A stretch of 5,196 nt of DNA. Origin: Escherichia coli (GTDB lineage Bacteria > Pseudomonadota > Gammaproteobacteria > Enterobacterales > Enterobacteriaceae). The notes below the pieces were generated by a model. It was not told the origin of the DNA. It saw only the letters and a list, made by a program, of their open reading frames with translations, and ran no database searches. The DNA lies in NCBI RefSeq assembly GCF_003334335.1, contig NZ_QOWQ01000077.1; one strand, given 5' to 3'. This document shows positions 867 to 5,196 of the stretch, in pieces (positions within the stretch are counted from its first letter, which is position 1; every line of letters begins with the position of its first letter). The position numbers and the translations under genes were made by a program.

Positions 867-964
867 GAGCTGAAAACGATCCTGACGCATCCTTCCTGTT
901 TTTCCGGGGTAAAACATCTCTTTTTGCGGTGTCTGCGTCAGAATCGCGTTCAGCGCGTTTCAGT

Positions 965-994
965 GGTGCGTACAATTAAGGGATTATGGTAAAT
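965..994. other. XerC/XerD recombination core site of cer
   Basis: ggtgcgtacaa (965..975), ttaaggga (976..983), ttatggtaaat (984..994), read directly. Confidence 0.85.
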
Positions 995-997
995 CCC

Positions 998-1426
998 TTA
1001 CTGTCTGCCCTCGTATCCATCGAGATAAACCGCAGAAATGGTGTCTGCCATTAGTTTCATTTTTTTCGGCGAAGGCATATCGCTGTTTGTGTATTTTCTG
1101 CCAGCAAAGGTTGTTGTGCTCCGGAGTGAGTGAAAAAATTTTTCTGAGTGGAATTCTTTTACACGTTGCTGTGCCGTTTCTGCTGATACTCCGGCTGCTT
1201 TGTCTTTCATCCCCATATCCCGGAACTGCTGAAAGAACGGGAGCATCATACGTATGGTGTCTGCTTTCTGGGTGTAGAAGTTAGGATCAAATCCATCATC
1301 TGAAGCATAAACATAATGCCGGGTATGTCGTTCCAGGCTGGTCTTTGGTGTGCATCCTGTAAGAGCTATTGTTGCTGTTATCAGAGGTATCAGAAGCAGC
1401 CTGGCAGCGGCAGATCTCATAAACAT
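998..1426 (-). CDS. Hypothetical lipoprotein (142 aa), function unknown
   Basis: The N-terminus MFMRSAAARLLLIPLITATIALTGC has a positively charged n-region, a hydrophobic core and an LTGC lipobox, indicating a signal peptidase II substrate. The mature part is hydrophilic. I recognise no family. The stop codon lies 3 bp from the cer XerD arm. Confidence 0.6.
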   Translation of the reverse strand: MFMRSAAARLLLIPLITATIALTGCTPKTSLERHTRHYVYASDDGFDPNFYTQKADTIRMMLPFFQQFRDMGMKDKAAGVSAETAQQRVKEFHSEKFFHSLRSTTTFAGRKYTNSDMPSPKKMKLMADTISAVYLDGYEGRQ

Positions 1427-1541
1427 CTCCTTGCGTTTTTAATCTTGATACTCAGGGAGTTATATCTCCGAAGAGTATCTCTTATCATACGTCGGTTTAC
1501 TCCCAATGTGATTTGATGGTCAATGAGTCAGGAATAATCCC

Positions 1542-1820
1542 GTGAAAAAATGTGTGCCAGTCCTGCTTTTTAGTGTTCTTTCTGCTTCGGTTGCCAGTCA
1601 TGCGGACAGCAATGTTTTTCAACAAAAGGCCGAGAAGACAAAAAACGGCATTGTTGCGGATGTTAATGCCAGACAGAAAATGTTCAGTAACAGACTGAAG
1701 ATACAACTTCAGATCGATGAGTTGAGAGCAGAGCTGGCTGGCACCAGAGATGCCCAAAAAAGAGAGGATTTGCGTAAAAAACTGGAGTCTCTGGAGCGGC
1801 AAAAGAAATCCTTACGCTGA
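1542..1820 (+). CDS. Hypothetical secreted or periplasmic small protein (92 aa), charged and probably helical
   Basis: GTG start with AGGA about 7 nt upstream. Signal peptide MKKCVPVLLFSVLSASVASHA with an AxA-like cleavage site (SHA|D). The mature ~71 aa are K/E/R/Q-rich with heptad-like spacing (QLQIDELRAELAGTRDAQKREDLRKKLESLERQKK). Divergently arranged with the lipoprotein gene across a 115-bp intergenic region. Confidence 0.5.
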   Translation: MKKCVPVLLFSVLSASVASHADSNVFQQKAEKTKNGIVADVNARQKMFSNRLKIQLQIDELRAELAGTRDAQKREDLRKKLESLERQKKSLR

Positions 1821-2129
1821 TGGGGGCGTATTTTCCCCGGTTTCTTCCATAACCTTTTTACCGTTCAGATATTTACGGGCGAGGCGAATGCGTCTTGCCT
1901 GGTATACCGCCGAGTAAGCCTGGGTGGGATTCACACCATTACTGATTTCACTGACCACATGACGCTGATCTGCCAGTGTCAGCGTGTAAACCTGTTTCTG
2001 GATGAGGTCACGGGCTTTGTCATGCTCATATCCGGCAGCAACAAGGGTGTCGAGAAGTCGTTTGTCTGTTTTGTTCAGTTTATGGCGGGGTGATTTGCTC
2101 ACATCGTTCTCCGTTTTTTCATGATCCAA
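1812..2129 (-). CDS. Hypothetical basic protein (105 aa), putative DNA-binding (HTH-like)
   Basis: ORF convergent with the 1542..1820 gene (9-bp overlap) and divergent from the colicin promoter. The segment DKRLLDTLVAAGYEHDKARDLIQ looks like a helix-turn-helix. An alternative start is GTG at 2102, preceded by GGAG. No family recognised. Confidence 0.45.
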   Translation of the reverse strand: MDHEKTENDVSKSPRHKLNKTDKRLLDTLVAAGYEHDKARDLIQKQVYTLTLADQRHVVSEISNGVNPTQAYSAVYQARRIRLARKYLNGKKVMEETGENTPPSA

Positions 2130-2346: not shown

Positions 2347-3819
2347 ATGGATAAAGTCACTGATAATTCTCCAGATGTGGAGAGCACAGAATCTACTGAG
2401 GGGTCATTCCCAACTGTTGGGGTTGATACTGGCGATACGATTACAGCGACGCTTGCAACTGGAACTGAAAATGTTGGTGGAGGCGGTGGAGCATTTGGTG
2501 GGGCCAGTGAAAGTTCTGCTGCGATACATGCAACCGCTAAATGGTCTACCGCGCAGTTGAAAAAACATCAGGCTGAACAGGCTGCCCGTGCTGCTGCGGC
2601 TGAGGCAGCATTGGCAAAAGCGAAATCTCAGCGTGATGCCCTGACTCAACGTCTCAAGGATATTGTTAATGACGCTTTACGTGCTAATGCCGCTCGTAGT
2701 CCATCAGTAACTGACCTTGCTCATGCCAATAATATGGCAATGCAGGCAGAGGCTGAGCGTTTGCGCCTTGCGAAGGCAGAGCAAAAAGCCCGTGAAGAAG
2801 CTGAAGCAGCAGAAAAAGCGCTCCGGGAAGCAGAACGCCAACGTGATGAGATTGCCCGCCAACAGGCTGAAACCGCGCATTTGTTAGCAATGGCGGAGGC
2901 AGCAGAGGCTGAGAAAAATCGACAGGATTCTCTTGATGAAGAGCATCGGGCTGTGGAAGTGGCAGAGAAGAAGCTGGCTGAGGCTAAAGCTGAACTGGCG
3001 AAGGCCGAAAGCGATGTACAGAGTAAGCAAGCGATTGTTTCCAGAGTTGCAGGGGAGCTTGAAAACGCTCAAAAAAGTGTTGATGTGAAGGTTACTGGAT
3101 TTCCTGGATGGCGTGATGTTCAGAAAAAACTGGAGAGACAATTGCAGGATAAGAAGAATGAATATTCGTCAGTGACGAATGCTCTTAATTCTGCGGTTAG
3201 CATTAGAGATGCTAAAAAAACAGATGTTCAGAATGCTGAGATAAAATTAAAAGAAGCTAAGGATGCTCTTGAGAAGAGTCAGGTAAAAGACTCTGTTGAT
3301 ACTATGGTTGGGTTTTATCAATATATAACCGAACAATATGGGGAAAAATATTCCAGAATAGCTCAGGATTTAGCTGAAAAGGCGAAGGGTAGTAAATTTA
3401 GTAGTGTTGATGAAGCTCTTGCTGCATTTGAAAAGTATAAAAATGTACTGGATAAGAAAATCAGTAAGGTTGATCGGGATGCTATTTTTAATGCGTTAGA
3501 GTCTGTTAATTATGATGAGTTATCTAAGAATTTAACGAAGATATCAAAGTCGCTTAAAATCACTAGTCGAGTATCTTTTCTATATGATGTTGGTTCTGAT
3601 TTTAAAAATGCAATAGAAACTGGTAACTGGCGACCTTTGTTTGTCACGCTGGAGAAAAGTGCGGTCGATGTAGGTGTGGCAAAAATTGTGGCATTAATGT
3701 TTAGTTTTATTGTTGGTGTGCCTCTTGGTTTCTGGGGGATTGCAATTGTCACAGGTATTGTTTCTTCTTACATAGGGGATGATGAGTTGAACAAACTTAA
3801 TGAGTTGTTAGGGATTTAA
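2347..3819 (+). CDS. cta: Pore-forming colicin, colicin E1 family (490 aa); best recalled match is colicin 10
   Basis: AGAGGA lies 9 nt upstream of the ATG. Residues ~55-130 ([29 protein letters not shown]...[16 protein letters not shown]...[31 protein letters not shown]) and the C-terminal channel domain (YGEKYS...[28 protein letters not shown]...LKIT..VSF.YDV.SD...TG.W.PLF.TLEK.A.D.GV...VAL.FS...[15 protein letters not shown]....LN..NE.LGI) closely parallel the recalled colicin E1 sequence. The N-terminal ~50 aa and the central region differ. The 490-aa length, the 96-aa immunity protein and the 43-aa lysis protein fit my recollection of colicin 10, but colicin 5 or a close relative cannot be excluded without a search. 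Confidence 0.85.
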
Positions 3820-4106
3820 TTTCTCTTTAGAGTGTAATATATGAAACTTGGCAATCCTACTGGGATTGCCATTAATAAATAAAACAATGCAGATAACTTG
3901 CATAAGTACCAGGGTTCTTTTTTTAACTTTGTATTTTCTTTGATATATCTAGATATGGTTAATTTAGAGTATGGATATAGCAATACATGTATTGATGATA
4001 TAAATATAAATAACAAAGGAGTGTTATCATTGTCGTTAAATATTAAAATAAGAATCCATGGTATAAGTGATTCAGGTAAATTATGTAGGTAGTATTTTAA
4101 ATGCAT
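3816..4106 (-). CDS. cti: Pore-forming colicin immunity protein, E1 type (96 aa, integral membrane)
   Basis: Convergent with the colicin gene; the two stop codons overlap at 3816..3819. The protein is very hydrophobic and AT-rich in codon usage, with about three predicted transmembrane segments. Motifs [15 protein letters not shown] and [14 protein letters not shown] resemble the recalled colicin E1 immunity protein (...CPYSKYAIEHIF..., ...LAIPFGLLGLVY...). Confidence 0.8.
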
Positions 4107-4135
4107 AAGTATTTTTACTTTTGTTGGAAAGAAAT

Positions 4136-4267
4136 ATGAAAATAATAATTTTTCTAATTACAATATTATTCTTGTCAGGATGTCAAGCAAACTATATTCG
4201 TGATGTGCAAGGAGGAACCGTTGCACCATCTTCGTCTTCTGAACTGACGGGGATCGCGGTTCAGTAG
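4136..4267 (+). CDS. ctl: Colicin lysis (release) lipoprotein, 43 aa
   Basis: Not in the supplied ORF track (too short). Hand translation gives [43 protein letters not shown], with GGAAAG 5-10 nt upstream of the ATG. Signal peptide plus LSGC lipobox and a short mature peptide are typical of colicin lysis proteins. It sits downstream of the immunity gene on the colicin strand, as kil does in ColE1. Confidence 0.8.
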
Positions 4268-4275
4268 AAAAGATC

Positions 4276-4302
4276 AAAGGATCTTCTTGAGATCCTTTTT
4301 TT
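4276..4302 (+). terminator. Rho-independent terminator of the colicin-lysis operon
   Basis: Hairpin aaaggatct / agatccttt with a 5-nt loop, followed by a T7 run (4295..4302), immediately after the lysis gene stop. Confidence 0.65.
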
Positions 4303-4316
4303 CTGCGCGTAATCTG
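4287..4316 (+). promoter_or_regulatory. RNA II (replication primer) promoter
   Basis: -35 TTGAGA (4287..4292), 17-bp spacer, -10 TAATCT (4310..4315). The segment tcttgagatcctttttttctgcgcgtaatctgctgc is essentially identical to the recalled pMB1/ColE1 sequence upstream of the RNA II start. Confidence 0.65.
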
Positions 4317-4321
4317 CTGCC

Positions 4322-4429
4322 TGTAAACGAAAAAACCGCCTGGGGAGGCGGTTTAGTCGAAGGTTAAGTCAGTTGGGGACTGCTTAACCGGGTAACTGGC
4401 TTTAGTGGAGCACAGATACCAAATGCTGT
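4322..4429 (-). ncRNA. RNA I antisense copy-number control RNA (about 108 nt)
   Basis: The 5-prime end ACAGCAUUUGGUAUCUGUGCUCC... is the complement of 4429 downward and is homologous to the pMB1 RNA I start ACAGUAUUUGGUAUCUGCGCUCUG. The 3-prime end is the hairpin plus U-run complementary to aaaaaaccgcctggggaggcggttt at 4327..4351. Confidence 0.75.
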
Positions 4430-5091: not shown

Positions 5092-5196
5092 TTATCTCTC
5101 TGTGCTATTTTCTACTTCAAAGCGTGTCTGGATGCTGTTCTGGAGTTCTTCTGCGAGTTCGTGCAGCTTCTCACACATGGTAGCCTGTTCGTCAGC
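5092..5196 (-). CDS. rom: Rom/Rop, 3-prime portion (stop at 5092..5094); continues as feature 1..167 across the circular junction
   Basis: Same reading frame as feature 1..167; reverse-complement translation ends ...QTRFEVENSTER*. Positions 5120..5196 duplicate 1..77. Confidence 0.85.
   Translation of the reverse strand, partial: ADEQATMCEKLHELAEELQNSIQTRFEVENSTER
5120..5196. repeat. Terminal 77-bp exact duplicate of window positions 1..77 (circular-plasmid linearisation overlap, not a biological repeat)
   Basis: aagcgtgtctggatgctgttctggagttcttctgcgagttcgtgcagcttctcacacatggtagcctgttcgtcagc occurs at 1..77 and 5120..5196. Implied unit length is 5,119 bp. Confidence 0.9.

Follow-up and report, generated by a model that had tools for sequence, protein, structure and literature searches.

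Which genes occupy the approximately 1.1 kb between the cer site and the colicin promoter of this small Escherichia coli plasmid, and do they form one system? The window, that is, the whole 5,196-bp stretch of DNA that was analysed, opens and closes with the same 77 bases, so it represents a 5,119-bp circle. It is a circular ColE1-type colicin plasmid, 99.9-100% identical to the E. coli plasmid pEcoUTI1a (NZ_CP049851), and its positions 1152-2020 share 99.8% identity with the published pColK-K235. RefSeq annotates pEcoUTI1a with rop, a lone relaxosome gene labelled MobA, an Exc2 family lipoprotein, two hypothetical proteins, a 490-aa pore-forming colicin, a colicin K-type immunity gene and a lysis gene. 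RNAI lies at 4327-4427 of the window (Rfam).

The locus has already been sequenced, annotated and published in close relatives, as one gene of a named family and two conserved hypothetical genes. Our analysis indicates that the stretch is probably the usual kind of accessory backbone found on ColE1-family colicin plasmids, with three genes that were inherited separately and no single system.

The three genes and their products

The left boundary of the stretch is the cer XerCD core site (965-994), which matches GGTGCGTACAATTAAGGGATTATGGTAAAT exactly. On the right we read a colicin promoter from the sequence, with its -35 element at 2235-2240 and two overlapping LexA boxes at 2268-2298. The initial annotation had placed three open reading frames between the cer core and this SOS-controlled promoter, and all three are found there on the strands given. 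Their placement stands, whereas two of the start codons have to be moved, that of exc2 to 1420 and that of ORF3 to 2102.

The first gene, exc2 (ORF1; 998-1420, minus strand), encodes 140 aa when read from its second ATG; translation from the ATG at 1426 would give 142 aa. An AAGGAG sequence sits 6 nt ahead of the ATG at 1420 and directly against the first ATG, and RefSeq also calls the 140-aa form, so the start is most likely at 1420. The stop codon at 998 adjoins the cer core in the same gene order as in ColE1, and positions 3887-4426 of ColE1, which comprise the end of cer and exc2, align with window positions 943-1488. A consensus scan, the sole source for this feature, gives a sigma-70-like promoter candidate for exc2 at 1484-1512 on the minus strand (ATCACA-17-TATGAT); the scan returned no candidate for ORF2 or for ORF3.

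Judged by its sequence, ORF1 clearly belongs to the Exc2 family. It scores 179.5 bits against NCBIfam NF033828 (cut-off 35; profile positions 6-131 of 131) and is 67% identical to ColE1 Exc2. The initial annotation had not been able to match the lipoprotein to a known family, although it has one, and comparison with the ColE1 exc genes, suggested at the same time, was the right lead. The LTGC lipobox reported for it is present, with Thr at +2, and its Cys25 is invariant among 24 aligned members. ColE1 Exc2 has the same size, lipobox cysteine, position and orientation beside cer, and nothing essential differs between the two.

The AF2 model of Exc2 is mainly helical (mean pLDDT 79), and a fold search returned no informative neighbour in the PDB, nor does any Pfam model match the protein. 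In vesicles of Shigella sonnei, an Exc2 protein has been seen as an outer-membrane lipoprotein that makes up 0.42% of protein mass (PMC4820968; also PMC3368891), which indicates that the family is expressed and reaches the outer membrane. We picture Exc2 as a helical lipoprotein that is probably tethered to the outer membrane and faces the periplasm, a localization suggested by the lipobox and by the proteomics of this homologue.

The second gene, ORF2 (1542-1820, plus strand), encodes a 92-aa precursor, and the open reading frame agrees with the RefSeq coding sequence. We judged its signal peptide from the n-region, hydrophobic core and cleavage site read in the sequence: MKK is followed by CVPVLLFSVLSASVA and then by SHA, with cleavage predicted after SHA21, ahead of D, and a hydropathy peak of 2.7. 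Homologues retain a signal peptide despite sequence drift, for example MRKFVTALIIGGFSVSAHA ahead of E. Because such conservation of the signal through sequence change is typical of truly exported proteins, we infer that ORF2 is a Sec-type exported protein. The mature part (71 residues, pI 10.2) reads as a charged helical coiled coil, in agreement with the first description of an exported protein with a charged, heptad-patterned mature domain.

ORF2 would thus be a small, basic, Sec-exported coiled-coil protein that works in the periplasm. The periplasmic stress proteins Spy/CpxP/ZraP are likewise small and helical, but ORF2 has no Pfam match to them or to FlxA-like proteins (FlxA reaches only E 0.65), and it contains no LTXXQ motifs. 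No significant match to ORF2 was found in Pfam, NCBIfam or PHROG, and a Pfam scan of every member of the ORF2 alignment gave nothing significant either. PADLOC returned no match for Exc2, ORF2 or ORF3, even at E up to 1.

The third gene, ORF3 (1812-2102, minus strand), overlaps ORF2 by 9 bp at its 3' end. It encodes 96 aa from a GTG at 2102, or 105 aa from a possible TTG at 2129. Each of the four plasmid classes that were aligned, pPCP1 and the ColZ-like plasmids among them, retains the GTG and a GGAG Shine-Dalgarno sequence, the stretch upstream that holds the TTG extension is deleted in pPCP1 and the ColZ-like plasmids, and RefSeq gives 96 aa, so translation most likely begins at 2102 rather than at 2129.

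ORF3 and its neighbours

ORF3 is modelled as a basic four-helix cytoplasmic protein. Its pI of 9.9 (family range 9.6-10.9) bears out the basic character that the initial annotation had given it, and the AF2 model (mean pLDDT 81) contains helices at residues 20-31, 36-48, 52-63 and 68-88. Between two helices lies a loop, S-N-G-V-G/N, with an invariant glycine, which resembles a helix-hairpin-helix (HhH) motif. The N-terminal HhH domain of RadC gives sub-threshold matches in 3 of 12 ORF3 members, with a best E of 8e-3.

The clearest database match is phrog_36305 (function unknown; E 9.9e-39, profile positions 4-86 of 101), although a tblastn search of phage genomes (INPHARED) found no match to ORF3. 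Nothing significant emerged from a Pfam scan of ORF3 and of every member of its alignment, and a sequence-profile search of the PDB gave chance matches only (E > 0.4). Foldseek against AFDB50 retrieved only family members and uncharacterised small Vibrionaceae proteins. Two candidate relationships were tried and rejected because profile comparison was negative: a Hha/YmoA-type H-NS modulator, considered for a local ‘L-x-K-T-D’ resemblance, and a relative of Rop.

The family is tiny and restricted to ColE1-like plasmids, including pPCP1 of Yersinia pestis. When 1.84 billion representative proteins were searched exhaustively with an ORF3 profile, 19 matches emerged, one of them a spurious repeat protein, and a scan of 100,044 GTDB species genomes yielded 5 loci. 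Three of these five come from assemblies of Streptococcus, Paramuribaculum and Amphibacillus, which plasmid contigs appear to have entered as contaminants.

The pPCP1 orthologue is the hypothetical protein WP_002221218, encoded between pst and pla and 76% identical to ORF3 over 82 residues. It shares the divergent placement relative to a bacteriocin promoter with SOS boxes, and the intergenic region is homologous. Its C-terminal tail differs from that of ORF3, and pPCP1 has neither exc2 nor ORF2. A literature search with the pPCP1 locus tags returned nothing relevant, and the pColZ paper concerns another plasmid.

In the window, ORF3 and the colicin gene diverge from a 244-bp control region (2103-2346) that is common to pst of pPCP1 and to the ColZ-like plasmids, and a four-way alignment of this region has a mean column identity of 75%. 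A half-conserved CRP-like site can be read from the sequence at 2200-2215. ORF3 stands head-to-head with a toxin operon in the window, in the related plasmid L007, in pPCP1, in the 5.2-kb ColZ-like plasmids and in the PAAR-Pyocin_S plasmids. The toxins of these unrelated operons belong to five classes: a colicin 5/10/K-type colicin, a ColA-like colicin, pesticin, a protein like the C-terminal part of ColZ, and a PAAR-Pyocin_S protein. The whole intergenic region is homologous in the first four, with LexA boxes, -35 element and CRP-like site, and that of the Pyocin_S plasmids is approximately 77-115 bp long and unrelated to the others.

Other relatives lie beside replication and maintenance functions. 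In the Lelliottia-type plasmids (L010-L013) and in a metagenomic plasmid (L009) whose ORF3 homologue is only 44% identical, the ATG of ORF3, preceded by a GGAGG, shares bases with the stop codon of rop (ATGA). This arrangement joins rop and ORF3 in an apparent operon directed towards ori, and the lineages that have it are the two most divergent that we found. In L004 and L014, which represent the ColZ-like and Pyocin_S plasmids, the 3' end of ORF3 abuts cer.

We favour the reading, tentatively and as a possibility rather than an expectation, that ORF3 is a nucleic-acid-binding factor linked to the rop/ori/cer core. It draws on the ATGA overlap with rop, on the 3' end that abuts cer elsewhere and on the HhH-like G-V-G/N hairpin. 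ORF3 would be a small backbone factor tied to this replication-maintenance core and lying back-to-back with an SOS/CRP-controlled toxin promoter, with differing toxin cargos having been inserted beside it. Three observations weigh against such a role. The HhH resemblance is sub-threshold; the ORF3 of the window itself has no linkage to rop, and its conserved 244-bp region shared with the toxin gene fits regulation of the toxin equally well; and in pColK-K235 an IS2 element is inserted inside ORF3 while exc2 is retained. This last arrangement suggests that, in the laboratory at least, the plasmid can survive without ORF3.

The main rival casts ORF3 as a transcription regulator devoted to the divergent bacteriocin or toxin operon, acting with LexA and CRP on the intergenic region. 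The head-to-head placement of homologues with toxin operons of five classes is what such a regulator would predict, as is the joint conservation of ORF3 and the entire promoter region in the window, pPCP1 and the ColZ-like plasmids. However, the intergenic regions of the different classes have no motif in common, and our search for an operator upstream of ORF3 or rop across plasmid classes revealed no shared motif apart from the LexA and CRP-like sites that the colicin/pesticin class has. In the rop-coupled lineages rop lies immediately upstream, and one of them (L011) has no toxin adjacent to ORF3 at all. ColE1 has a homologous promoter without ORF3. pColK-K235, with its interrupted ORF3, is nevertheless a classic colicin K producer. 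Given these points, we regard a dedicated toxin regulator as unlikely.

Returning to the backbone factor, we can extend it to a broader proposal, which is speculative and on balance rather doubtful. ORF3 may found an undescribed family of small basic four-helix proteins, specific to ColE1-type replicons, whose gene originally followed rop as the second cistron of its operon. Through nucleic-acid binding, its members would adjust copy number and maintenance, or else the neighbouring SOS/CRP-controlled toxin promoter, including the pesticin promoter of pPCP1.

Exc2 and entry exclusion

The ‘entry exclusion’ in the name of Exc2 is historical. As far as PMC2831885 relays the work of Chan (1985), exc1 and exc2 were assigned to the exclusion region of ColE1. 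According to PMC2831885 and PMC11493245, which cite Yamada (1995), ColE1 exclusion was later moved to mbeD. ExcI is therefore without known function according to PMC2831885, and PMC11493245 doubts that real exclusion operates at all.

MbeD, the ColE1 protein actually tied to exclusion, is missing from the window plasmid. A tblastn search with ColE1 MbeD found no match in the near-identical plasmid L001 (the whole circle except the ori stretch at record positions 1-224), and the RefSeq annotation of that record contains no MbeD.

Exc2, possibly together with ORF2, could still be a true surface or entry-exclusion factor that lowers the uptake of related mobilizable plasmids in the manner of TraT. 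The original assignment in ColE1 points in this direction. Exc2 would, moreover, be an outer-membrane lipoprotein (PMC4820968) like TraT, and 733 of the 930 plasmids with an Exc2 relative are typed as mobilizable. Against this stand the reattribution to mbeD and the published doubt about true exclusion. TraT-type lipoproteins resemble Exc2 in being plasmid-encoded envelope lipoproteins, but homology was not detected, and in neither sequence nor fold does Exc2 resemble known exclusion proteins. The window plasmid, in addition, keeps exc2 though its relaxase gene and mbeD are gone. A true exclusion factor of this kind therefore seems to us quite unlikely. The initial annotation had offered entry exclusion as a possible role for the envelope-targeted small proteins; the role is doubtful even for the exc genes, since exclusion in ColE1 belongs to a gene that this plasmid lacks.

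Distribution and coding status of the trio

The three genes differ widely in how far they have spread. In PLSDB, tblastn found relatives of Exc2 in 930 plasmids from Escherichia, Klebsiella, Cronobacter, Salmonella and other genera, and relatives of ORF3 and ORF2 occur in 200 and 114 plasmid records, respectively. Nearly all of the ORF2 relatives are at least 92% identical, with a handful of divergent members besides. The trio is intact in approximately 93 plasmids, and of 5,426 complete E. coli genomes 81 (~1.5%) carry it. It precedes genes for colicins of the 5, 10 and K types and, in L007, a ColA-like colicin gene. Its copies are 92-100% identical, so the co-occurrence of the three genes is largely clonal.

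Presence and absence by tblastn separate the genes. ColE1 carries Exc2 and Exc1 without ORF2 or ORF3. ORF3 occurs alone in pPCP1 and in the ColZ-like, Pyocin_S and rop-coupled plasmids. ORF2 occurs alone in L006, a contig without exc2 or ORF3 on which the gene for a 63%-identical homologue follows that for a BaeS/AdeS-like sensor kinase; no annotated plasmid was matched to this context. The copies of ORF2 on large plasmids are remnants, and one of them (L022) has a premature stop. In the plasmid database ORF2 nearly always accompanies Exc2 and ORF3; this near-constant co-occurrence, in a sample that is clonal, leaves room for a functional link of ORF2 with Exc2 and ORF3.

ColE1 shows what else can stand beside exc2, as its exc1 takes the place that ORF2 and ORF3 have in the window plasmid. 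ColE1 Exc1 (145 aa; an N-terminal HTH and a coiled coil) is likewise encoded with exc2 on one side and the colicin promoter on the other, in divergent orientation to the colicin gene (PMC2831885), and has a weak match to the plasmid replication DNA-binding protein NF038291. Exc1 and ORF3 are alike in that both would be small backbone proteins that bind DNA. We nevertheless rejected ORF2 and ORF3 as Exc1 homologues because hhalign gave probabilities below 1% (0.1% for ORF2 and 0.7% for ORF3) and tblastn found nothing. Clear homology of all three proteins to well-characterised ones, such as ColE1 Exc1 or Exc2, had been named beforehand as a sign against the cluster; it was found for Exc2, one of the three, and not for ORF2 or ORF3.

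Could the three genes nonetheless make up one envelope/regulator unit, in which ORF3 regulates two envelope proteins that act in exclusion, receptor masking or envelope stress? The compact divergent and convergent layout is kept intact wherever the trio was counted above, and in L007 the same trio precedes a different colicin. We consider a unit of this kind very unlikely, as the ‘one functional unit’ of the initial annotation is contradicted by the differing distributions and by the near-clonality of the trio. More divergent plasmids carry each gene without the others, and ColE1 couples Exc2 with the unrelated Exc1. Disruption of a reading frame in a close relative had been named beforehand as a sign against the cluster, and the IS2 insertion in pColK-K235 is such a case: ORF3 is broken and exc2 remains. 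The simplest reading is that three accessory genes would have been acquired separately, piling up between cer and the cargo promoter.

By their substitution patterns, Exc2, ORF2 and ORF3 are all real coding genes and more than chance open reading frames. In Nei-Gojobori comparisons with divergent homologues, dN/dS lies between 0.18 and 0.29 across the three. The value for Exc2 against ColE1 is 0.25; for ORF2 it is 0.19-0.29 (against homologues 63-76% identical); and for ORF3 it ranges from 0.18 to 0.26, with 0.24 against pPCP1 and 0.26 against the ColZ-like plasmid. Third codon positions carry an excess of substitutions in all three alike. A long antisense open reading frame over ORF2 does not survive in the most divergent homologue, in which the sense frame is open.

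That ORF2 and ORF3 are chance open reading frames within a non-coding spacer, as their small size, their lack of family annotation and the absence of a clear sigma-70 promoter for ORF3 in the consensus scan might suggest, has almost nothing left to recommend it: the substitution patterns already refute it, the frames are unbroken in homologues down to 44% (ORF3) and 63% (ORF2) identity, Shine-Dalgarno sequences and start codons are kept among homologues, and the AF2 model is confident.

Taken together, these observations correct the annotation of the locus. The lipoprotein that counted as ‘unknown’ is Exc2, and the three genes are part of a backbone module, common and nearly clonal, that colicin 5/10/K-type plasmids carry. 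The Exc2 family is widespread, and one of its members occurs in quantity in outer-membrane vesicles, yet the family is named after an assignment that was later moved to mbeD. The ORF3 family offers a modest lead, as it is coupled to rop in some ColE1-like plasmids and stands beside pesticin on the plague plasmid pPCP1. Both the point about the Exc2 name and that about the ORF3 family are leads at most. Should ORF3 prove to influence copy number or the expression of the toxin, a replicon that is deemed fully understood would gain an extra protein factor.

Form of the plasmid and its colicin operon

The two ends of the window were compared, and positions 1-77 are identical to 5120-5196. The window is therefore a circular plasmid of 5,119 bp whose ends repeat each other, and the junction of the circle falls within rop (minus strand, about 5092 to 167). 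The mobilisation region is reduced to a single small relaxosome accessory gene (427-774), which RefSeq calls 'MobA' and which is of the MobC/MbeC type in relatives. Set against relatives that have MbeB and MbeD, such as pACN001-E (6,822 bp), this lone gene suggests that the plasmid is a mob-deleted derivative, although PLSDB typing still returns 'mobilizable' despite the reduction.

The colicin operon occupies 2347-4267. From 2922 onward, which takes in the pore domain, immunity, lysis and ori, the window is 92.9% identical to the colicin K plasmid pColK-K235. The immunity protein shares its RefSeq accession with Cki. Positions 2357-2921, which encode the N-terminal third of the colicin, gave no alignment to pColK-K235. 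Compared with colicin K, the operon appears to be a chimera. The colicin is 490 aa long, a length that would fit colicin 5/10-type proteins.

The convergent ORF2 and ORF3 in the window and their relatives

The 3' ends of ORF2, a predicted exported small protein, and of the convergent ORF3 share 9 bp (1812-1820), and positions 1821-1839 contain a small GC-rich hairpin with a T-rich run after it. L007 keeps this 9-bp overlap; there the gene set stands upstream of a ColA-like colicin gene. In the classic pColK-K235, IS2 sits within the ORF3 homologue (L005, NC_006881, 869-2198), at a point corresponding to about 2015-2020 of the window, and the ORF2 homologue as read there has a one-base frameshift; apart from these differences, the region matches the window at 99.8% identity.

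An ORF3 orthologue, 76% identical, is also found on the Y. pestis pPCP1-type plasmid (L003, 4992-5297), flanked by the divergent pesticin gene and by pla. On this plague plasmid, the pst promoter region has a LexA box and a CRP site close to consensus (TGTGATCTGAATCACT), and it is homologous to the region around the colicin promoter in the window.

ORF3 beside rop and further afield

On Lelliottia-type and metagenomic ColE1-like plasmids, the ATG of the ORF3 homologue overlaps the rop stop codon as ATGA (L010, 5822-6246; L009, 218-744; also L011-L013), with GGAGG shortly 5' of the overlap. This arrangement suggests that rop and ORF3 form an operon with coupled translation, reading towards ori. 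Type VI secretion-style toxin cargo adjoins rop or ORF3 in the small ColE1-type plasmids L010-L017 (among others PAAR-Pyocin_S-CdiI_5, a VgrG3-like C-terminal domain with TsiV3, and PAAR-DUF3289-DUF943), whereas E. coli plasmids carry colicins in this slot.

Homologues about 76-78% identical to ORF3 occur on short contigs from assemblies labelled Streptococcus parasanguinis, Paramuribaculum intestinale and Amphibacillus jilinensis (L023, L024 and L026); contamination with plasmid DNA from enterobacteria is the most likely origin. Searching AFDB50 with the ORF3 model returned remote structural matches (TM 0.6-0.7, about 20% identity; A0A510URK5, A0A2T3MWD2 and others) among proteins of 80-110 aa from Aliivibrio, Photobacterium and Vibrio that are uncharacterised. 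These predicted similarities hint that ORF3 may belong to a wider superfamily.
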